Source: Squalus acanthias
Taxonomy: Eukaryota
Length of the DNA: 64,000 nucleotides
Assembly: GCA_030390025.1 (NCBI GenBank)
Contig: CM059431.1
Span: 144,586,001 to 144,650,000 of the forward strand
Direction: 5' to 3'
Shown: positions 43,791 to 63,399 of the stretch, piece after piece
Layout: every line of letters starts with the position of its first letter
Position numbering within the stretch: position 1 is the first letter of the stretch
Position numbers and translations under genes: made by a program
Notes under the pieces: model-generated
Told to the model about the DNA's origin: nothing
Databases searched by the model: none
The model's input: the letters and a program-made list of their open reading frames with translations, nothing else

Positions 43791-44005
43791 TGACGTAATA
43801 AAGACTCACTACGCACTTGAACATAAAGCAAGGTTTTAATCAACTTGTAACAAAACATGGAGGTCTGGTTAGCAGTCACTAGCTTCCTGTTTCCAGATTG
43901 TCTCTGCCCAAGGTGGGCCCATGCCTGAGTATTTATACTCCCTGGACGGCGCCCCAGCTGGCCGCCCAGTAGTACTTCCTGAGTTGTTACTTGCGATTTA
44001 TGACA
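43791..44005 (-). repeat. 3' LTR of Gypsy A
   Basis: 210/215 identical to 48079-48293. Confidence 0.95.
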
Positions 44006-44043
44006 TTCTTCCTCCCTAAAAGGTTTGGAAGTCCAGTCTTCCT

Positions 44044-47000
44044 TTAACGGACTAGGCGGACCAGAAATAGCCGCAGACGTTTAGCTCTCTGCTTGTGACT
44101 GGAAGGCACGTCTCCCCGGACCGTGTCCTGGTCCCTGGGGCGCTTGGCCCATCCCGGTAAGTCAGTAGAGTCCGCGTCATCTTGATCATCCTGTGGAGGA
44201 CTGGGAATATCATGACTCCGGGTGCGGGTCCCCACAGGTGCTGAGCTGGCCTCATCCCGGGTCATGGCTGGAGATTGTCCGGCATCCTGGTTTCGGGTGG
44301 CCATCCTACGGGGAGCGTCCAGCTCCCTGAGTTGATCCGGTAGTTTTGCCGGCAGATCCCCCGATGTCCCAGGCGGGGCGTCATTTACATAGGGGTGCGG
44401 AGTATTGATATCATTGTCGGGGGATCCTTCATCATTCGGGCCCGTGTGACTGGTTGGGCAGGGAGCTAGATCTCGGAGCGAGACGGTGGTCTCCCGGCCA
44501 TCAGGGTACCGTATATGCGCATACGTGGGGTTTACCTCCATTAACTCCACCTCGTCAATGAGAGGGTCGTTTTTGGCAGACCGGACGAACCTCCGGAGTA
44601 GTACCGGGCCTGGAGCCACCAACCATGACGGTAGAGACGTCCCATGTGTAGAGCGACGCCGGAATTTGAAGAATCGCTCATGAGGCGTGACATTAGTAGA
44701 TGTGGAGAGAAGAGACCTGATAGAGTGTAACGCGTCGGGGAGCACCGTTTCCCACTGCTGGTCCGGCAGGTTGCGTGACCTTAGTGCCAGACAGACAGCG
44801 TTCCAGATGATGGCATTGTATCGTTCAACCTGTCCGTTACCGATTGGGTGATATGGTGTCGTCCTACTTGAGGCGATTCCCCGTTGGGAGAGATAACTTT
44901 TAAGTTCACTCGACACTGCTATCAGTGTGGATAAAATTGGCCGTCCCGCAAAGGGAAAAGACCTGATCGAGGCATTTAATTACCGTAGAGGTAAGCATAT
45001 TAGGGCAGGGGAAGGCGAAGGGAAAGCGTGAATACTCGTCCACCAGCGTAGGTAGGTAGGTGTTCTTTGTCGACGAAGGCAATGGCCCTTTAAAGTCTAT
45101 GCTGAGCCTCTGCATAGGCTGCATTGCATGTATGAGTAAGCCATCTGATGGGCGAAAGAATTGTGGTTTCAATTCTGCACAAATCCTACAGGAGGAGCAT
45201 GTTTTCTTTACGTCCTCGGTTGAAAATGGTAGATTTTTGGAGCGCACAAAGTGCAACATGCGGGTCAGACCAGGATGGCATAAGTCCATATGCAAATCCG
45301 CCAGAGTCGACGTTGACATTGAGGAGCAAAATGCCCGTGTGAAGGTATCTGGGGCCACGTTCTGTTTGCCGGGTCGGTAACAGATAGTATATCCAAAGGC
45401 AGCCAGCTCCATCCTCCAGAGTTGAATTTTATTATTTTTGATTTTCGTGCGCCTCTGGTTATCCAACATGAAGGCCACAGAGCGCTGGTCAGTTATAAGC
45501 ATAAAATGACGCCGAGCAAGAAAATGACCCCATTGGCGTACAGCCTCGATGATGGCCGTAGCCTCCTTCTCGACGGGGGGGTAATGGAGCTCGCTACCCT
45601 GCAAGGTTCTGGATAGGAATGCCACGGGTCGGCCACCTTGATTCAAGGTAGCAGAGATCCCCACCTCCGATGCATCGCATTCGACCACAAAAGGAAGATT
45701 TTCGTCAATGGAGCGAAGCGTGGCTTTCTCCAGCTGTCGTTTGAGGAGGTTGAAGGCAGAAATAGCCGTAGCTTCCAATGGGAAAGACTTCGCATGGAGC
45801 CGGGGCTGTATTTTATCGGAGAAGTGTGGTATCCATTTTGCGTAATAAGCAAACATGCCAAGTGCCCGACGAAGAGAGCCGAGGTTCGTTGGGGGAGGGA
45901 GCTCCTGAAGTGGACGAAGTCGCTCTGGGTCCGGTTTAATAACACCGTTGCCCACCCAGTAGCCAAGAATGTTCACCGATGGCACCGACTTCACCGATTT
46001 GGATTCGTTTAACGTTAAGTGGCGACGGCGGAGTACGTCAAAAAATCTCTGAAGATTGGCGTCATGCTCCTTTTGATCATGGCCGGCAATAGTGATATTG
46101 TCTAAATACGGAAAGGTATCCGTCAAGTTCTCTTGCCGGACTAGGCCATCCATGGCCCGTTGGAAGACGGCCACCCCATTGGTGACCCCGAATGGAAGGC
46201 GGTGAAACTGGAAAAGCCGACCATTGGCCTCAAAGGCCGTATACTTCTTGTCAGAGTCTTGCAGTGGCACCTGATGGTACGCGCTTTTTAAATCGAAGGT
46301 CGAGAATACCTTGTATTTGGCAAGGTTGTTGACCATGTCATCTATGCGTGGCAGCGGGTAGGCATCCAGATCGGTATATAGATTAATAGTCTGCGAATAA
46401 TCGATACACAGACGTTTTTTATGTTGTTTTAAGGGATTCCTCACGATGACGACCTGAGCCCGCCAGGGAGATGAACATGGCTCGATAATATCGTCGACTA
46501 AAAGGCGAGAGATTTCCGCCTCAATAAACGCTCGATCATCTTGGCTAAAGCGCCGCGATTTTGTGGCTATGGGTTTACAGCGGGGGGGGGGCGAAGATTG
46601 GCAAATAGGGAGGGTTCACCGAGTAAGGCCGCCGAGAGTGCACAAAACGGCACCTTAGAAATGGTAAGCTCCGGCCTTGACCCTCCAAACTCAAAAGTGA
46701 TCTTCTTGTGCTGCTTCTGGAAGTCCTGTCCCAGAAGCACATCGCTGCATAAGTTTGCAAGTACTCCGAGCCGGGTGGAGAGATACGTGCGGCCGTTGAG
46801 GATGAGGTTGACCAGACAGAAGCCAGAAGAATTGGTGGTCAGAGTCGTCAGAGCCATTGCAATCTCCCTGTCCGAGGGATAAATGTGCAGTTTTAACCTG
46901 TTGACAGCCCGCTTACTAATGAAGCTGTCAGAGCTGCAGGAGTCGATTAGCGCGCTTAGAGTGTGCCCATTTACTGAAACCTTCGTGGCTGCATGGGACA

Positions 47001-47978
47001 AACTTTGGGGAAAAACAGCCGTGATGGGAGGAGGGGCAATTTTCCCTTCGGCAACTGTAGCCTTAACAGTAGTTCTTGGGGGAGGAGCAGCTCCATAGAT
47101 AGCAGCTGTGAAGCTAACAGGAGCTCTCGACCGGTATACTTTAGAGGAGAGGCCTTTCTTGTTAGCAAAGGCCCGTGACTGGCATACCTTGGAAAAGTGT
47201 CCTTTCTTGCTGCAATGATTGCAGGTCACATTACGAGCCGGGCAAAATTTTCTGTGATGGCACGCCCCTCCACAAAAGAAACACTTTCTTCCTGATTGCC
47301 AGGATGCTGCTAGGGCGGGGTCGTCATCAGCGAAGGCCTCTAGGGTAGGGTCGTCGTCTGTTAGAGTAGAGTCAACATCAGTGGGGGCATCCGCCCGAGA
47401 CCTACCGAAAGTTCATTAAAGGAGATAGCCGCCGCCTGTGCACGTGGTGGGAGATAAGTGTCTGCATTTTTCTTGGCCAAGTCCAAGGAACACGCCTGGT
47501 CATAAGCAGCCCGTAAATTGAGGATTTTATTTTCCAGCAGGCGCTGACGTATAAAAGGGGACGCGATTCCATTGATAAAGGAATCGCGGATTAGTTCCTG
47601 TTGATACTGTTCAGCTGAAACTGCTTTAAGGTTACAATCCTTGCTGAGCCTGCGAAGTTTCTGGAGAAATTCATCGAGTGATTCCCCAGGCTGCTGCCGA
47701 GTTGTGGCCAGTAGGTGTCGAGCAAAGATTTCATTTGGGGACTTGACATATAGCTGCTGTAAGATTTCGATAGCAGTGTCATAGTCTATACAGTCCTCAA
47801 TATAATCATACACATGAGGGGACACGTAGTTGATAAGCATTCGTAACTTATTAGGGACATCCGCCCCACATTCTTCAAGAAAGTTGCTAAAGGTACGAAA
47901 CCAATGCTTCCATACCTTTGCTGCCACAGGTGCATTCGGGTCCAGGTCGAGACGAGCGGGTCTAAGGAGTTTTTCCAT
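44044..47978 (-). pseudogene. Gypsy A gag-pol with three frameshifts (~47400, poly-G 46582-46591, ~44915)
   Basis: Gag MEKLLRPARLDLDPN, CCHC knuckles, PR ALIDSCS, RT FDLKSAYHQ/YLDN, RH VECDAS, IN HHCC + IDFKG/GQVER. Confidence 0.92.
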
Positions 47979-48078
47979 GATGGATCAGTTTCTTGCCCAA
48001 GTTCCCTTCTGTGGTTCGAGTTGCAGCTGGTTGTTCCGAATCATCCAAAGCGTGGAGACGATATCAAGTTGATTAAAT

Positions 48079-48293
48079 TGATGTAATAAAGACTCATTAC
48101 GCACTTGAACATAAAGCAAGGCTTTAATCAAATTGTAACAAAACATGGAGGTCTCGTTAGCAGTCACTAGCTTCCTGTTTCCAGATTGTCTCTGCCCAAG
48201 GTGGGCCCATGCCTGAGTATTTATACTCCCTGGACGGCGCCCCAGCTGGCCGCCCAGTAGTACTTCCTGAGTTGTTACTTGCGATTTATGACA
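48079..48293 (-). repeat. 5' LTR of Gypsy A
   Basis: TG..CA ends; minus-strand TATAAATA and ATTAAA. Confidence 0.95.
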
Positions 48294-52910: not shown

Positions 52911-53439
52911 CAGTGAATTTCCCCAGCGCTATGAGGGCTCATCATGGACTTTCCCTGCCGGTGGTTCACTGGACCTGACTCGGCTGGCGCGACCCTCTGA
53001 CGCCCGATTCTGCCCCGCTATATATTGTAAGTTTGATAGTTGAGAGCTGTTATTCTGTCCGCTCACCACATCCTCCCAGCCCGAAGGCCGCCGACTCAAT
53101 GCCCATTTCATGTTATTGTTTGGACTACAGGAAGCCCTACGATGCTTTGCTCTGAGTTTTATGGATCCACTGCCAGTGGACTGGGTTCTCGTGACTGAAT
53201 TAGGCACGTTACATAACTACATATGATTGACCAATAAAACGGGGGCTCTCGGTTTTCCAACCACCAGGCGGGGTTTCAGTGTAAACTCATTCTTTCCCCC
53301 TGGCAGGTGAAGCGCATGCGCTCTTTATAATGAACACTCGGGTATTCAGCATAACACCGCGAGCTGGAGCTGGCCTCATCCAAATGGTGGAGTGTTCTCC
53401 ACATCTGGATCATTCCCATCACGATCCCGTGATCCACGA

Positions 53440-56403
53440 ACAAAAAACAAAGGGCCAAACTAATTCATAAAAAATGTGAGCATAAAAAAAGCCTGAGGGT
53501 TTTATACCTTAATGCGAGAAGCATCAGGAACAAGGTAGATGAATTAGCTGTGGAAATAGAGGTTAATAATTATGATCTAATTGGGATTACGGAAACATGG
53601 TTGCAGGGTGAGCAGGGCTGGGAGCTTAACATACAGGGGTATTCAGTATTTAGGAAGGATCGACAAAAAAGAAAGGGAGGAGGGGTAGCATTGCTGGTAA
53701 AAGAGGGGATAAATGCAATTGAAAGGAAGGATATTAACTCAGTTAATACAGAATCTATATGGGTGGAGCTAAGAAATAACGAGGGGCGAAAAACATTAAT
53801 AGGAGTGGTATATAGGCCTCCAAATAGTAAAATAGAGGTTGGGGAGGGCATCACGAGGGAAATTAGAGAAGCGTGCAATAAGAGCACAGCTGTCATCATA
53901 GGTGACTTTAACTTACATATAGATTGGACTAGCCTAATCAGTAAAAATAATGAGGAGGAGGAATTCCTTGAGTGTTTAAGTGATAGTTATCTGGATCAAT
54001 ATGTCGAGGAACCAACTCGGGAACAGGCTATATTGCACTGGGTACTGTGCAATGAGAAGGGACTAATTAGTAATCTTGTTGTACGGGGACCCTTGGGTCA
54101 GAGCGATCATAACATGATCGATTTCTCACTCGAAATGGAGAGCGAAGAAATTGACTCAGAGACTAAGGTCCTGAATTTAAACAAGGGGAATTATGATGCC
54201 ATTAGACGGGAACTGAGTAGGTCTGATTGGACAACGTTCCTGGGAGGACTGGAGGTAGATAAACAATGGCAAGCATTTAAAGGTAGAATGACAAAATTGC
54301 AAAAATTGTTTATACCAATCTGGCATAAAAGGAAATCTAAAAAGGTGACTCAACCGTGGATAACAGGGGAAATTAGAGACAGCATAAAATCCAAAGATAG
54401 GGCGTATAAAATAGCCAAAAAAAGCGCCAGAGCGGAAGATTGGGAACAGTTTAAGATAGAGCAAAGGAGGACAAAGGGCTTAATCAAGAGGGGCAAAATA
54501 GCTTACGAAAGCAAGCTGGCGGAAAATATAAAAACTAACTCCAAAAGCTTTTATAAGTATATCAAGAGGAAAAGACTGGTGAAAACCAAAGTTGGTCCAT
54601 TGCAGTCAGATACGGGGGAATATATAACGGGAAATAAGGAAATGGCAGACCAACTAAATGCATACTTTGGGTCAGTCTTCACGAAGGAAGACACAAAAAA
54701 CCTCCCTGGGATATCGGGAAAAATAGGGACATTGGCAAAGGAAGAACTGACGCAACTCAATATCTCTAAGGATATGGTGTTAAGGAAGCTAAAGGGATTG
54801 AAGGCGGACAAATCCCCAGGGCCTGATAACATGCATCCTAGGGTACTGAAGGAGGTGGCCCTAGAGATAGCGGATGCACTAAGTATGATTTTTCAGAATT
54901 CATTAGACTCGGGAACAGTGCCCATGGATTGGAGGGTAGCTAACGTTACCCCACTATTCAAAAAGAGGGGTAGGGAAAAAGCAGGTAATTACAGACCTGT
55001 AAGCCTTACATCAGTTGTGGGCAAAATGCTGGAGTCCATCATTAAGGATGAAATAGCGGAGCACTTAGCAAATGGGGACAGGATAGGACAGAGTCAACAT
55101 GGATTTACAAAGGGTAAATCGTGCTTGACTAATCTATTGGAATTTTTTGAGGGAGTAACTGGTAAAATAGATGGGGGAGAGCCAGTAGATGTGGTGTACC
55201 TGGACTTCCAAAAGGCCTTCGACAAGGTCCCACATAAAAGATTAGCATGGAAAATTGAAGCTCATGGGATAAAGGGGAAAGTATTGACGTGGATAGAGAA
55301 CTGGCTGTCAGATAGAAAACAGAGAGTTGGAATAAACGGCTCATTTTCTGAATGGCAGGCAGTAACAAGTGGGGTACCACAGGGATCTGACCTGGGTCCC
55401 CAGCTGTTCACAATTTACATTAATGACCTGGATCAGGGAGTCGGATGCAGCATTTCCAAATTTGCAGACGACACTAAACTAGGAGGGGGGGTGGGCTCAG
55501 AGGAGGAGACCAGGAAGCTCCAGAGCGATTTGGACAGACTGGGTGATTGGGCGGATAAATGGCAGATGCACTATAATGTGGACAAGTGCGAAGTTATCCA
55601 CCTTGGGTGCAGGAACGGGAGGGCAAATTATTATTTAAATGGCAATAAATTGGGAGAGGGGGAAGTACAGAGAGACCTGGGTGTTCTTGTACACCAGTCA
55701 CTGAAGGCGAGCATGCAGGTGCAACAGGCGGTCAAGAAGGCAAACGGTATGCTGGCCTTCATAGCAAAAGGGTTGGAATACAGGAACAGGGATACCTTGC
55801 TGCAGCTGTACAGGGCACTGGTGAGACCACACCTCGAGTACTGTGTACAGTTTTGGTCGCCTCATCTGAGGAAAGATGTTCTTGCCATGGAGGGGGTGCA
55901 GCGGCGATTCACCAGGCTGATACCAGGAATGGTGGGATTGACCTATGAGGAGAGACTATGTAGTTTAGGGATGTACACACTGGAGTTTAGAAGATTGAGA
56001 GGGGACCTCATAGAAGTGTATAAAATTCTGACAGGTCTAGACAGACTAGATGCAGAAGGAATGTTTCCCTTGGCGGGTGAGAACAGAACTAGAGGACATA
56101 ATTTAAGGATAAGGGCTAAACCATTTAGGACAGAAATGAGGGTGAATTTCTTCACTCAGAGGGTGGTGAACCTGTGGAACTCATTGCCACAGAGGGCAGT
56201 GTACGCCAGCTCATTAAATATATTTAAGAGGGAATTAGATATATTTCTACAGGCAAAAGGGGTTAAGGGTTACGGAGAGAAGGCGGGGACGGGATACTGA
56301 ATTGGAGGATCAGCCATGATCTCATTAAATGGCGGAGCAGGCTCGAAGGGCCGGATGGCCTACTCCTGCTCCTATCTTCTATGTATCTATGTATCTATGT
56401 ATG
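53440..56403 (+). mobile_element. Young CR1 LINE, truncated just upstream of ORF2
   Basis: Complete open EN+RT ORF, 3' UTR, (TATGTATC)n tail; no ORF1 upstream. Confidence 0.95.
53481..56300 (+). CDS. CR1 ORF2: APE endonuclease + reverse transcriptase (frame open upstream of the called GTG at 53550)
   Basis: LRVLYLNARSIRNKVDEL, GITETW, VYRPP, GDFN, SDH, KSPGPD, LDFQKAFDKV, FADD. Confidence 0.92.
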   Translation, partial: HKKSLRVLYLNARSIRNKVDELAVEIEVNNYDLIGITETWLQGEQGWELNIQGYSVFRKDRQKRKGGGVALLVKEGINAIERKDINSVNTESIWVELRNNEGRKTLIGVVYRPPNSKIEVGEGITREIREACNKSTAVIIGDFNLHIDWTSLISKNNEEEEFLECLSDSYLDQYVEEPTREQAILHWVLCNEKGLISNLVVRGPLGQSDHNMIDFSLEMESEEIDSETKVLNLNKGNYDAIRRELSRSDWTTFLGGLEVDKQWQAFKGRMTKLQKLFIPIWHKRKSKKVTQPWITGEIRDSIKSKDRAYKIAKKSARAEDWEQFKIEQRRTKGLIKRGKIAYESKLAENIKTNSKSFYKYIKRKRLVKTKVGPLQSDTGEYITGNKEMADQLNAYFGSVFTKEDTKNLPGISGKIGTLAKEELTQLNISKDMVLRKLKGLKADKSPGPDNMHPRVLKEVALEIADALSMIFQNSLDSGTVPMDWRVANVTPLFKKRGREKAGNYRPVSLTSVVGKMLESIIKDEIAEHLANGDRIGQSQHGFTKGKSCLTNLLEFFEGVTGKIDGGEPVDVVYLDFQKAFDKVPHKRLAWKIEAHGIKGKVLTWIENWLSDRKQRVGINGSFSEWQAVTSGVPQGSDLGPQLFTIYINDLDQGVGCSISKFADDTKLGGGVGSEEETRKLQSDLDRLGDWADKWQMHYNVDKCEVIHLGCRNGRANYYLNGNKLGEGEVQRDLGVLVHQSLKASMQVQQAVKKANGMLAFIAKGLEYRNRDTLLQLYRALVRPHLEYCVQFWSPHLRKDVLAMEGVQRRFTRLIPGMVGLTYEERLCSLGMYTLEFRRLRGDLIEVYKILTGLDRLDAEGMFPLAGENRTRGHNLRIRAKPFRTEMRVNFFTQRVVNLWNSLPQRAVYASSLNIFKRELDIFLQAKGVKGYGEKAGTGY

Positions 56404-58400: not shown

Positions 58401-58591
58401 TTTAAAGCTGAGATTTTTTTTAACCAAAGGTATTAAAGGATCTGGAGCAAAGGGATGCAAACGGAGATAGGTCGCAGAGCTCATTGAATGGTAGAAAGGC
58501 TCGAGGAGTTAAATGGACTGCCCCTGTTGCTATTCTCATTGTCTAATGTTCAGAGACGATTGTGGAGAAGAGAATCGCGATTTTAAAGCAG

Positions 58592-58664
58592 CGCCCGAAC
58601 AGGGACTTGAACTCAGGACATAGACATTAAAAGTCTGATACTCTACCGACTGAGCTATCCGGGC
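58592..58664 (-). tRNA. tRNA-Lys(UUU), degenerate, probable pseudogene
   Basis: GCCCGGATAGCTCAGTCGGTAGAGTATCAGACTTTTAATGTCTATGTCCTGAGTTCAAGTCCCTGTTCGGGCG (73 nt). Acceptor stem and A/B boxes are canonical; the anticodon 3' strand and T stem are mispaired. Confidence 0.85.
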
Positions 58665-58723
58665 TCACAAAAGGATTTTCCTTGGCTGCCGTGCATCAAT
58701 GCACCCTCTACTAATTCAATGTT

Positions 58724-58917
58724 TGTCGTAAGAATGAGCCTTACGCGTGGTGAACTTAAAGTAAGCTTTAATCCACTAAAAAGGTGCTACATACAAAAGA
58801 GGTCTTACTCTATGCCTCTCCAGGATCCAACGGAGCAGCACAGTATTTATCCTGGACTAATCACAGGAAGTGATGTAATAAAGTTCAAGTCACAGGAAGC
58901 TGTATTGTGTTGCCACA
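58724..58917 (-). repeat. 3' LTR of Gypsy B
   Basis: 190/194 identical to 63011-63204. Confidence 0.95.
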
Positions 58918-59377
58918 TTCTCCCCCCCCCAAAAGATTAGGAGGCCGGGATGAAGTTCGAGTCACAGGAAGCTGTATTGTGTTACCACATTCTCCCTCCA
59001 TTTCGTAGCCGCTGGACGAGGGAGAGCCGCACCCGTTTGGGTTCTCGTAGCGGTAGAGGGCCCTTAGCCCGTTTACCCGCCACGGGCCGTGGACCAGAGT
59101 CCGAGTGATCCAGCCCGCTCTGTGAGGGGTCAGGACGATCCTGACTGTGTACTGGTGCCCGAACGGGTGTCGGGCAGGGCTGTGATAGATCCGTTTCCGA
59201 GCGTATGGTACGGGGTGGATCGTGGCTGCGCGTGCGAGCCCCGATCGGCTCAAAATCAGTCTGCCCCAGGTCGGCACGCTGGAGTGAGGTACCAGCCGGC
59301 GTCAGATCCAGATCGTGATGAGAGGCACCTGGCGAGCCCAGAGATGTGCCTGGTACAATATCATCCCCTGGTGTCCC

Positions 59378-62300
59378 TCAATGTTTCGGCGGGCAGGGAG
59401 CCAGATCCCGTAATGACACGGTAGATTCCCGACCGTCAGGATACCGAATATAGGCGTAGGTAGGGTTGACGTCAGTGAGCTCAACCTCATCTACCAGGGG
59501 GTCATTCTTAGACGCCCGAACATATCTTCGGAGTAGCACTGGTCCCGGTGCAGTCAGCCACGACGGGAGAGATATCCCATAGGATGAGCGACGCTGAAAT
59601 CGGAAGAACCGTTCATGAGGCGTCGTATTTGTGGCGGTCGAAAGGAGGGACCGTGTGGGGTGTAATGCGTCTGGAAGTACTGCTTCCCATTGCTGGTTGG
59701 GTAGGCCCCGAGATCTCAAAGCCAGACGTACCGCATTCCAGATGATAGCGTTAAAACGCTCGACTTGCCCATTCCCGACCGGATGATAAGGCGTCGTTCT
59801 GCTGGCAGCAATACCCCGTTCCGAGAGATAGGCCTTGAGTTCTCCTGACATAAAAGAAGGGCCCCGATCCGAATGAACATAGGATGCCATGCCACAGAAA
59901 GCAAATACCTGCTCAAGGCAGCTGATAACCGTGGTCGTCAGCATATTGGGGCAGGGAAAGGCAAACGGAAAACGGGAATACTCATCGACCATGGTCAATA
60001 GATAAGTGTTGCGAGTTGAAGAGGGCAACGGCCCCTTAAAATCGATGCTAAGCCGTTGCATTGGCTGGGTCGCATATATGAGTATACCACCCGAGGGGCG
60101 GAAAAACTGAGGTTTCAATTCCGCACAGACTCTGCAGTCCGAGCACATCTTCTTTACATCCCCGGTAGAGAATGGGAGATTTCGGGACCGCACGAAGTGT
60201 AGCATGCGAGTAACGCCCGGATGACACAACCCATCATGGATGTCTACGAGCGTAGAGGGTGCCATGGCGGAGCAGAATGCTCGTGTGAGATAATCCGGAG
60301 CCACATTCTCCTTGCCAGGTCGATAGTGGATGGTGTAACCAAAAGAGGCCAATTCCAGCCGCCAAAGCTGGATTTTATTATTTTTAATTTTGGTCCGTTT
60401 TCGATTATCGAGCATGAAGGTGACCGATCGCTGGTCCGTGATTAAGGTAAAGTGCTGGCGAGCTAGGAGATGACTCCACTTCCGTACTGCCTCTATGATG
60501 GCTGTAGCTTCTTTCTCGACTGGAGGATAATGTAGCTCAGCCCCTTGAAAAGTCCTGGACAAAAATGCCACCGGACGACCTTCCTGATTCAGAGTGGCCG
60601 AGATCGCCACCTCCGAGGCATCACACTCAACAACAAAAGGAAGACTCTCATCGATGGAGTGAAGAGCCGCTTTCTCCAACTGTTTTTTCAGGAGGTTAAA
60701 GGCTGCAACAGCCGCTGTGTCTAGTGGGAATGTGCTGGCCTTCAGTAGAGGTTGGATTCGGTCCGAGAAGTTAGGAATCCATTTAGCATAGTATGCAAAC
60801 AGGCCGAGGGCCCGGCGCAAGGAGGCCGGATTCTTAGGTGGCGGGAGTTCTTGGAGTGGGCGAAGCCTTTCAGGGTCAGGTTTAATGATGCCATTGCCCA
60901 CACAATAGCCAAGGATGTTGATGGTTGGTTGTGACTCAATGGATTTAGCCGTATTTAATGTCAAATTACGGTGCTGGACTGCATCCCCAAATCGTTGGAG
61001 ATTGGCGTCATGTTCCCGCTGATTGCGACCTGCGACAGTAATATTGTCCAGATAAGGAAACGTATCCTTTAAGTCTTCCTGTTTGACCAGGTCATCCATT
61101 GCTCGCTGGAAGACAGCCACTCCATTAGTGACCCCAAAGGGGAGACGACAAAATTGATACAGCCGTCCATTGGCTTCAAAGGCCGTATACTGCTTGTCTG
61201 AGACCTTCAAGGGTACCTGATGATAGGCACTTTTCAGATCATATGTTGAGAACACCGTGTACTCAGCCAGTTTATTAACCATATCATCGATGCGCGGCAA
61301 TGGGTATGCGTCCAAGTCCGTATATTGATTGATGGTCTGTGAATAGTCAATGCACAGCCGCTTCTTGTGAGGTTGTAGAGGGTTCTTAACAATAACGACC
61401 TGGGTGCGCCATGGCGACGAACAAGGCTCGATGATATCCTCTGCTAAAAGCCGAGAAATCTCAGCCGCAATAAAAGACTGGTCTTCCTGACTGAAACGTC
61501 GTGACTTTGTTATAATCGGTTTGCATCGAGGAGGGATACTGGTAAACAGTGAGGGTTCATCCAGTGAAGCTGCTGACAATGCACAGAACGGTAATCGAGG
61601 TCGTATATTAGAAATAGTGAGTTCAGGTTTGGATCCGCCGAACTCAATGGTGAGCTTCTTATGCTGCTTTTGAAAATCTAGCCCTAAGATAAGATCACTA
61701 CATAAGTCCTTGAGCACCGAAAGCCGGGTGGAGGGATACCTGTGACCATTAAGTGTTATTTCAACCATACAAAAGCCAGAAATTCTGGTATTAAGTGATG
61801 ACTGAGCCATCGCAATTGCCTGGTCCGATGGGAAAACATGTAGCTTTAACTCTGCAACAATCTGTTCCCTAATGAAACTATCAGTGCTACCTGAGTCAAT
61901 TAAGGCATCTAAAGTATGTCCATTAATTGATGCTTTTGTAGCTGCATGGAATAGGTTCTGAGGACAAGCAGCTGTAATTGGTGTCGTTGCACAAAGAGTG
62001 GCTGAAACTCTAGGTGTGTTTCTTCGAGAGAAAACCCGAGAGGAAGCACGATAGATTTTAGCCGGAACATCTTGATAGGCCCTTACCGGGGCAGTTCGGT
62101 AGGACTTAGCTTGATAAGCCCTCGTAGAGGCTCTTGATAGGCAAACCTTTGCAAAATGACCCTTTTTGTTGCAATGACTGCAAAACGCATTGCGAGCAGG
62201 GCAGAATTTCCGAGGGTGAAACTCATCACCACAAAAGAAGCATTTCTTAGATTGCCAAGAGGCTGCCACAGTGGGGTCATCATCCTCTTCATCAGTGAAG

Positions 62301-62932
62301 TCATCAGATTGATCGTCAGGGATAAAGTCCTCCCTAATAGAGTTCACCTGTGGCCTCTTAAATTGCCTGACTGTAGTTAAGGCAGCAGACCGAGGTCTGG
62401 GCACTGTATAAAGGTCTGCATTTCTTTTTGCCAGATCTAGAGAGCAAGCCATGTCATATGCTCTCTGAAGCTCAAGTGTCTTACTTTCCAGTAGACGCTG
62501 GCGTATAAATGGGGAGGCAAGCCCGCAGATGAAAGCATCACGGATCATTTCTTCACGGTACAGCTCAGCTGAGGCCGCCTGAAATTTACAGTCCATACTA
62601 AGTCTGCGAAGCTCTTGGAGGAATTTATCAATGGATTCCTCCAGCCCTTGTTGGGCTGTAGCTAGTAGATGTCTGGCATAGACCTCATTCGGTGTCTTAG
62701 TATATAGTCTTTTAAGCATCCGAATTGCCTCCTCGTAACTGCCCCATTCCTCGACATACTGAAATACATTCGGGGTGACACAGTTGATGAGTATCCGCAA
62801 TTTTGAGTCATCATCAGACTTGCAATATTCGAGAAAATTGTCAAACGTGCGATACCAGTGTTTCCACACCTTACCGGCTGCTGGGGTGTTTGGGTCCAAG
62901 TCAAGACGCGATGGTTTAAGGATGTTTTCCAT
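59378..62932 (-). CDS. Gypsy B single-ORF Gag-Pol polyprotein (1184 aa)
   Basis: Two CCHC knuckles, PR ALIDSGS, RT YDLKSAYHQ/YLDN, RH VECDAS/EKE/TDQ, IN H-H-C-C and D(IDFKG)-D(HSDRG)-E(GQVER); no chromodomain. Confidence 0.96.
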   Translation of the reverse strand: MENILKPSRLDLDPNTPAAGKVWKHWYRTFDNFLEYCKSDDDSKLRILINCVTPNVFQYVEEWGSYEEAIRMLKRLYTKTPNEVYARHLLATAQQGLEESIDKFLQELRRLSMDCKFQAASAELYREEMIRDAFICGLASPFIRQRLLESKTLELQRAYDMACSLDLAKRNADLYTVPRPRSAALTTVRQFKRPQVNSIREDFIPDDQSDDFTDEEDDDPTVAASWQSKKCFFCGDEFHPRKFCPARNAFCSHCNKKGHFAKVCLSRASTRAYQAKSYRTAPVRAYQDVPAKIYRASSRVFSRRNTPRVSATLCATTPITAACPQNLFHAATKASINGHTLDALIDSGSTDSFIREQIVAELKLHVFPSDQAIAMAQSSLNTRISGFCMVEITLNGHRYPSTRLSVLKDLCSDLILGLDFQKQHKKLTIEFGGSKPELTISNIRPRLPFCALSAASLDEPSLFTSIPPRCKPIITKSRRFSQEDQSFIAAEISRLLAEDIIEPCSSPWRTQVVIVKNPLQPHKKRLCIDYSQTINQYTDLDAYPLPRIDDMVNKLAEYTVFSTYDLKSAYHQVPLKVSDKQYTAFEANGRLYQFCRLPFGVTNGVAVFQRAMDDLVKQEDLKDTFPYLDNITVAGRNQREHDANLQRFGDAVQHRNLTLNTAKSIESQPTINILGYCVGNGIIKPDPERLRPLQELPPPKNPASLRRALGLFAYYAKWIPNFSDRIQPLLKASTFPLDTAAVAAFNLLKKQLEKAALHSIDESLPFVVECDASEVAISATLNQEGRPVAFLSRTFQGAELHYPPVEKEATAIIEAVRKWSHLLARQHFTLITDQRSVTFMLDNRKRTKIKNNKIQLWRLELASFGYTIHYRPGKENVAPDYLTRAFCSAMAPSTLVDIHDGLCHPGVTRMLHFVRSRNLPFSTGDVKKMCSDCRVCAELKPQFFRPSGGILIYATQPMQRLSIDFKGPLPSSTRNTYLLTMVDEYSRFPFAFPCPNMLTTTVISCLEQVFAFCGMASYVHSDRGPSFMSGELKAYLSERGIAASRTTPYHPVGNGQVERFNAIIWNAVRLALRSRGLPNQQWEAVLPDALHPTRSLLSTATNTTPHERFFRFQRRSSYGISLPSWLTAPGPVLLRRYVRASKNDPLVDEVELTDVNPTYAYIRYPDGRESTVSLRDLAPCPPKH

Positions 62933-63010
62933 GATGGGTGATTCCCTGGATCCTTAGTTCCGAGTTCGTCCAAAAAGTTTGAGTGCGAAGTTTTTCAAAG
63001 TTGTTTAAAT

Positions 63011-63204
63011 TGTCGTAAGAATGAGCCTTACGCGTGGTGAACTTAAAGTAAGCTTTAATCAACTAAAAAGGTGCTACATACAAAAGAGGTCTTACTCTAT
63101 GCCTCTCCAGGATCCAACTGAGCAGCCCAGTATTTATCCTGGACTAATCACAGGAAGTGATGTAATAAAGTTCAAGTCACAGGAAGCTGTATTGTGTTAC
63201 CACA
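63011..63204 (-). repeat. 5' LTR of Gypsy B
   Basis: TG..CA ends; followed on the element strand by a non-tRNA PBS. Confidence 0.95.
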
Positions 63205-63399
63205 ATGTTCTTGTCCAGTAATCCCGCCTCTACAGCACATTTCACTCACAAGTTCAGACTGACTACCTCAAACCGGCTTCACTTCAGAAATGTTCTCTCT
63301 CCCGCAAACGACACGCTCTTTAGCAGTGGCCTCAGATGTGAGAACTGCGGTCCCCAAGATATCTGTATTGGATATTCAACTTTTCACCATATTTATTAT

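Follow-up and report, generated by a model that had tools for sequence, protein, structure and literature searches.

An LTR retrotransposon in a 64,000-nt stretch of Squalus acanthias DNA (the window: GCA_030390025.1, contig CM059431.1, positions 144,586,001–144,650,000), here called element B, carries at its primer-binding site (PBS) the complement of a motif in its own LTR, and the same arrangement recurs with family-specific sequences across a broad lineage of animal Gypsy elements. As judged from sequence comparison, this constitutes a real and well-supported structural signature of self-priming outside the chromodomain-bearing elements. Our best reading is that the lineage would represent a new variant on a known mechanism, Tf1-like self-priming without a chromodomain. 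We regard it as very likely that the primer derives from the element itself by one route or another, and as moderately probable that minus-strand DNA is primed by the element's own RNA through fold-back, an RNase H cut after the motif, and re-writing of the PBS. The literature examined links self-priming in Ty3/gypsy to the Tf1/sushi chromoviruses. If real, a second self-priming lineage that is widespread in animals would mean that LTR elements escape dependence on tRNA repeatedly, and annotation tools that demand a tRNA PBS would miss such a lineage.

Element B (58724–63204, minus strand, as are all its features below) is a Ty3/Gypsy (Metaviridae) LTR retrotransposon, young, with a single ORF and without env. 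Its LTRs (5′ LTR 63011–63204, 194 nt, TG...CA; 3′ LTR 58724–58917) differ at 4 of 194 nt and are thus 97.9% identical; the 5-bp target site duplication ATGTT flanks the copy (63205–63209 and 58719–58723), and a polypurine tract lies at 58918–58930. The ORF (59378–62932, 1184 aa) encodes gag-PR-RT-RNase H-IN with two Cys/His knuckles. Pfam positions place PR, RT, RNase H, and IN in Ty3/gypsy order, and Ty3 Gag-Pol is the best PDB match of the protein (E 3e-58). A scan of the ORF, the downstream tail frame, and five full-length relatives detected no Chromo family. An in-frame stop (59378–59380) divides the integrase from that tail frame, which is Pro-rich (58982–59377); in relatives, unlike element B, the Pro-rich tail lies inside the ORF. 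[quoted passage not shown] About 55 nt from the left end of the element, ARAGORN reports a tRNA-like gene with a stop anticodon (58591–58664, minus), probably a tRNA-derived repeat. The window also contains a LINE endonuclease-RT ORF of 955 aa (53433–56300, plus), numerous LINE fragments, and tandem arrays (33, 48, and 49 nt).

Read along the element strand, the 5′ LTR (63204–63011) is followed by a single unpaired spacer A (63010) and then by TTTAAACAACT at 63009–62999. This position adjoins the LTR end, where a primer must bind according to published accounts (PMC7175516, PMC6317226), and it contains no TGG. The LTR holds the motif AGTTGATTAAA at 63064–63054, separated from the LTR end by 43 nt, its last bases being ATTAAA, a variant poly(A) signal; this candidate self-primer pairs with the PBS at 10 of 11 positions, the single mismatch falling at 63004. 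Two inner hairpins appear in the predicted fold: P2, CTTA/TAAG, directly 3′ of the motif (within 63053–63041), and P3, CGTAAG/CTTACG, just before the LTR end (63032–63014). An earlier note made from the letters alone had described this geometry and both hairpins, and every feature that it named was recovered. The motif copy in the 3′ LTR (58767–58777) carries a further change, at the equivalent of 63061, and pairs with the PBS at 9 of 11 positions.

Dinucleotide shuffles of the element B LTR, with spacers of 0–3 nt allowed, reached 10/11 in 23 of 2,000 cases and 11/11 in none. Fold energy is ordinary relative to shuffles for element B alone (z −1.2 and −1.7), and no single copy, whether of element B or of the related element A described below, falls beyond shuffles (z −1.1 to −1.7). 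Rfam returned two weak, chance-level matches in the priming region and none at gathering score.

The mismatch at 63004 was compared with four public sequencing runs (four of the 24 listed, from four coded organisms and four studies, as assembled contigs only) over 62760–63260. In all four, the entire depth at 63004 (1, 1, 8, and 2 contigs) carries the base that pairs with the LTR motif, which makes the mismatch private to this copy; contigs lose rare variants, so the comparison reflects the common state only. The earlier note's reading of the mismatch as post-insertion decay agrees with this result and with covariation of the helix across distant families. The same comparison listed 14 variant sites inside the LTR, none in the motif or the two stems, a weak indication given a rough chance estimate of ~0.06 and the origin of many sites in one subfamily. 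In runs of seven coded organisms, family B was represented by 0.47–0.74 of sampled words, which suggests that it is common to related species or has spread between them.

Element A (43791–48293, minus; LTRs 43791–44005 and 48079–48293; target site duplication GTAAC; coding region in several frames) has the same geometry. Its PBS position (48065–48077, minus) pairs 13/13 with the motif in its 3′ LTR (43835–43847) and 12/13 with that in its 5′ LTR (48123–48135). The earlier note had counted the agreement between A and B as independent support, which overstates it. Their RT–RNase H regions are 80.7% identical in amino acids and 70.5% in nucleotides, the two are sisters in the tree (support 0.997), and they carry the same PBS 11-mer by descent, so that element A adds weak support for B. 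Nor are the remaining parts of the two LTRs uniformly "hardly alignable," as had been claimed: The description fits the part upstream of the motif, where 10 of 200 shuffles equaled the alignment, but not the part from motif to LTR end, where 41 identities in 56–57 nt were equaled by 0 of 200. The CTTA/TAAG hairpin of B has a different register in A, and the LTR alignment contains one two-sided change in CGTAAG/CTTACG.

The evidence that carries the argument comes from more distant relatives. A protein search yielded 259, of which 120 were listed (47–67% identity); named relatives among the matches listed come from corals, an anemone, a snail, a fluke, a nematode, and crustaceans. The viral contigs searched yielded no relatives. 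With an alignment of 42 relatives, we fetched 80 metagenome and 13 genome-bin loci regardless of their PBS. Of these 93 loci, 41 were testable, and the 52 without a gag-start match having 130 nt upstream were left out. When each was searched blindly for its best helix, 31 of the 41 exceeded all 20 of their dinucleotide shuffles. The 10 misses comprise two loci with a wrong gag start, which hold 15- and 14-bp helices and were added by hand (L035 and L061, respectively); one with two mismatches, also added to the helix set (L066); two in which only the 3′ LTR pairs with the PBS, at 12/14 (L064, L065); a decayed copy (L015); three with weak gag matches (L018, L046, L080); and one for which the blind search found no helix partner (L055). 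Comparison of 5′ and 3′ repeats placed the LTR end at most 3 nt from the junction used in 12 of the 15 loci checked for a repeat pair; of the exceptions, L002 and L008 were over-extended, and the repeat of L081 is an assembly overlap. An RT–RNase H tree, restricted to best segments of at least 150 aa (L039 dropped), recovers one lineage on a long branch, apart from outgroups at 30–33% identity. Two observations stand beside this survey. Loci L081–L093 are animal Gypsy elements within bacterial genome bins, most likely host contamination, and L029:1-140 seems to differ in geometry, its helix beginning 2 nt inside the leader and enclosing a longer loop of ~75 nt.

Copies with the helix number 36, namely 34 loci together with A and B, and form 23 families, each represented by its best-pairing member; one copy with a mutated LTR end (L011) does not serve as a representative. 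Because the set was picked for having the helix and for its best pairing, the per-position counts are inflated: Counted from the motif 3′ end, Watson–Crick pairs occur in 21–23 of 23 families at positions −1 to −13, in 14–16 at −14 to −16, and in at most 7, the background level, from −17 onward. The spacer forms a Watson–Crick pair in none. Helix length ranges from 11 to 19 bp by family (11 bp in element B) and loop length from 24 to 68 nt.

Pairing persists while the paired sequences change. The 23 families have 20 distinct PBS 11-mers, and the PBS 12-mer matches its own LTR at 12/12 in 17 of 23 families, vs. 1 of 506 pairings with the LTRs of other families. Across positions −1 to −11, 248 of 253 cells are paired and 5 unpaired; 49 differ from the commonest pair on both sides, although these are not independent events since the families are related. 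Positions −1 to −4 and −10 are conserved (G at −10 in 21/23), whereas −5 to −9 and −11 vary with matching LTR changes. Complementarity and the fixed register hold in families down to 41% RT identity. TGG is absent within 0–5 nt of the LTR end in all 23 families; distant Gypsy elements of the same locus set (L088, L089, L092; 30–33% identity) have TGG sites. The element's own LTR is the only complement that tracks the primer-binding site from family to family, a first clue to the mechanism.

The sequence flanking the motif is patterned as well. The base after the motif is G or A in 21/23 families, mostly followed by CC, and RCCT is followed by AGGY—the counterpart of P2 in relatives—in 11 of 14 families (against a mean of 2.0 and a maximum of 7 in 2,000 null draws), so that a hairpin often stacks at the putative cut; taken individually, P2 from position +1 is significant in 4 of 23. 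In 14 of 23 families the last bases of the motif are ATTAAA or AATAAA, a second canonical hexamer lies within the loop in 3 of 23, and families such as L074 and L061 retain the helix with no canonical hexamer at the motif.

We propose the following route for priming. In vivo, the LTR motif would fold back on the PBS position of the same transcript, forming a helix of 11–19 bp whose 3′ end lies one nucleotide from the end of U5. The RNA would be cut right after the last A of the motif (in element B between 63054 and 63053), where the helix meets the short hairpin. The most likely nuclease is the RNase H that the element encodes, by analogy with Tf1; in element B, the RNase H motifs retain their acidic residues. 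Supporting stem-loops between primer and PBS are reportedly required in Tf1. The new 3′-OH would be extended across the spacer and U5, and plus-strand synthesis would later copy the primer, so that the PBS would be re-written from the LTR motif in each cycle and the two would stay complementary. Probably the helix also conceals the poly(A) hexamer of the 5′ LTR, but not that of the 3′ LTR. One locus (L023) shares 99.2% identity with L003 yet differs by one change that stands in both LTR motifs and by a complementary one in the PBS, as expected if the primer is copied into the PBS; this is a single copy, and selection alone could enrich it. Another (L002), in which both LTRs carry a motif change, has an unchanged PBS and could be either an intermediate or a counter-example to templating. 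The structure is short (66 nt in element B) and has many natural two-sided variants, which makes it directly testable how the cutting of an RNA duplex yields a primer.

Of the alternatives, the one that survives best keeps the primer element-derived and dispenses with the fold-back cut: It could be a short R RNA, ended early at the poly(A) signal of the 5′ LTR and trimmed by host nucleases, or the 3′ copy of R, from the same genome or from one packaged with it, annealing to the PBS. We consider this possible though fairly unlikely. It explains the covariation and the L023 pattern equally well, the variable helix length fits trimming, and with a hexamer at the motif end in 14 of 23 families, short 5′-LTR transcripts would contain the motif. 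Poly(A) cleavage normally occurs 10–30 nt beyond the hexamer, however, and a short R RNA would be expected to end past the hexamer rather than at it. The sharp 3′ boundary of the pairing (spacer 0/23), together with (G/A)CC and the RCCT...AGGY hairpin, favors a structure-guided cut, and the loop is held to 24–68 nt.

It is improbable that the helix merely masks the poly(A) signal of the 5′ LTR while some host RNA primes. Masking would be neatly asymmetric, limited to the 5′ copy because the partner strand lies outside the LTR, and it would account for the overlap with the hexamer (14/23) and for the scarcity of a second canonical hexamer in the loop (3/23). Against this, no single host RNA can follow 20 distinct PBS 11-mers that change in step with each LTR; TGG is absent, a fixed 1-nt spacer is not needed for masking, and the helix is kept in families, L074 and L061 among them, that have no canonical hexamer at the motif.

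Priming by a host tRNA fragment or other small RNA, with the LTR match as a secondary, U5-IR-like competitor, seems to us very unlikely. Half-tRNA priming is reported for some copia elements (PMC6317226), described insect Mag elements use tRNA PBSs (PMC3286476), and the conservation of positions −1 to −4 and −10 might be read in its favor, but positions −5 to −9 and −11 vary by family with matching changes in the LTR, and the region has no Rfam match at gathering score. For coincidence, or for an inverted repeat of AT-rich DNA that has no function, it can be said that a single copy reaches 10/11 in ~1% of shuffles and that A and B are not independent. The blind test and a fixed register with family-specific complementarity down to 41% RT identity contradict this reading, and we give it hardly any weight.

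Within the proposed fold-back scheme, the odds are about even that the primer is the 5′ end of the transcript, as in Tf1, or an internal segment. Three observations can be counted for a 5′ end: No TATA box recurs at one distance (7 TATA-like matches in 23 families, scattered from −103 to −35), G occupies −10 in nearly every family, and a mismatch at −14 persists, uncorrected in all five copies of one family. For an internal primer count helices of up to 19 bp, acceptor-like sites, and an upstream TATA-like box: In element B, GATAAATAC in U3 (63130–63138), which may serve as a promoter element, is also present in the LTR of element A, and this sole TATA-like box that the two share lies 85–103 nt upstream of the motif 3′ end. 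Acceptor-like YAG sites upstream of the motif are weakly enriched over the 23 families (23/1,000). Separately, six loci (L049, L068, L071, L061, L005, L034) have a pyrimidine tract plus YAG within ~50 nt upstream of the motif 3′ end, accompanied in L061 and L005 by a branch-point-like word; these sites could be cis- or trans-splice acceptors. A primer joined by splicing need not be invoked, since the partner of the PBS is uninterrupted at the DNA level.

The lineage is also unusual in its reverse transcriptase. The catalytic motif is of the YxDN rather than the YxDD type in element B (YLDN, residues 634–637 of P0001, ORF 59378–62932, minus), in element A, and in 93 of the 120 homologues listed among the 259; 25 of those 120 retain the second aspartate, and 2 could not be aligned. 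YxDN also occurs in young copies with open frames (among loci L001–L085). The idea that YxDN is necessary for self-priming was rejected, since members with YLDD (L005, L006, L068, L079) pair with their own LTRs too. The substitution is that of the laboratory mutant D211N of Ty1 RT, for which PMC2148107 describes 223-fold slower polymerization, blocked transposition, and partial rescue by suppressors in RNase H. Unlike in that mutant, YxDN is here the natural majority state, and a natural YxDN site bears on why Ty1 D211N fails and how the RNase H domain rescues it. A more ambitious account, which we hold only tentatively and think rather doubtful, is that an old, pan-animal, non-chromovirus lineage evolved self-priming by itself, with an internal primer that doubles as poly(A) signal and an RT without the second YxDD aspartate. 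A single helix would then prevent premature polyadenylation in the 5′ LTR and, after a cut where it meets the hairpin, also furnish the primer.

The lineage is probably a Cigr-1/Mag-related branch of Ty3/gypsy; the name is a lead, drawn from general features and host overlap. A size of ~4.2–4.5 kb, short LTRs, a single ORF, and the double knuckle fit Cigr-1/Mag. Biomphalaria glabrata has a multi-copy relative of 1219 aa; for the same host, the supplement of PMC6238403 files Cigr-1 under Mag with five Cigr-1 families. The snail also has Mag AB and C families. A search of supplements, including that of PMC13524379, with peptide and DNA motifs gave no match that would name the clade; these supplements list names, and no peptide in them matched. 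The mosquito Mag elements described in PMC3286476 have tRNA-Leu/Ser/Arg PBSs, unlike the present lineage, in which none of 23 families has a TGG. In the literature searched, which did not extend to Repbase Reports, the Gypsy Database, or most subscription journals, we found no description of self-priming, or of natural YxDN, in such a lineage, so an earlier mention is possible.

Among known systems, the TAR lineage of Ty1/copia (Houba, Osr-1) offers a parallel outside Tf1/sushi, its self-priming having likewise been predicted from PBS–LTR complementarity (PMC6317226); unlike element B and its relatives, TAR belongs to the copia superfamily, to plants, and to a different domain order. The closest likeness is to Tf1 and Tf2 of Schizosaccharomyces pombe, Tj1 of S. 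japonicus, and Tf1/sushi elements including Tcn1, which the available accounts describe as having a PBS complementary to their own LTR in place of a tRNA PBS (PMC7175516, PMC4600332, PMC5341516, PMC6317226). In Tf1, the PBS is bound by bases 1–11 of the transcript, which RNase H severs from base 12 (PMC7175516); element B likewise has 11 bp, and its fold-back geometry would aim the primer at U5. The lineage of B is not filed under Tf1/sushi because the search for a chromodomain found none; it differs further in its two Gag Cys/His knuckles and its predominantly YxDN RT. Where Tf1 has a fixed 11 bp, the helix here varies from 11 to 19 bp by family. The Tf1 primer is the transcript 5′ end, a role for which the present motif is a candidate. 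The motif of this lineage usually ends in a poly(A) hexamer.
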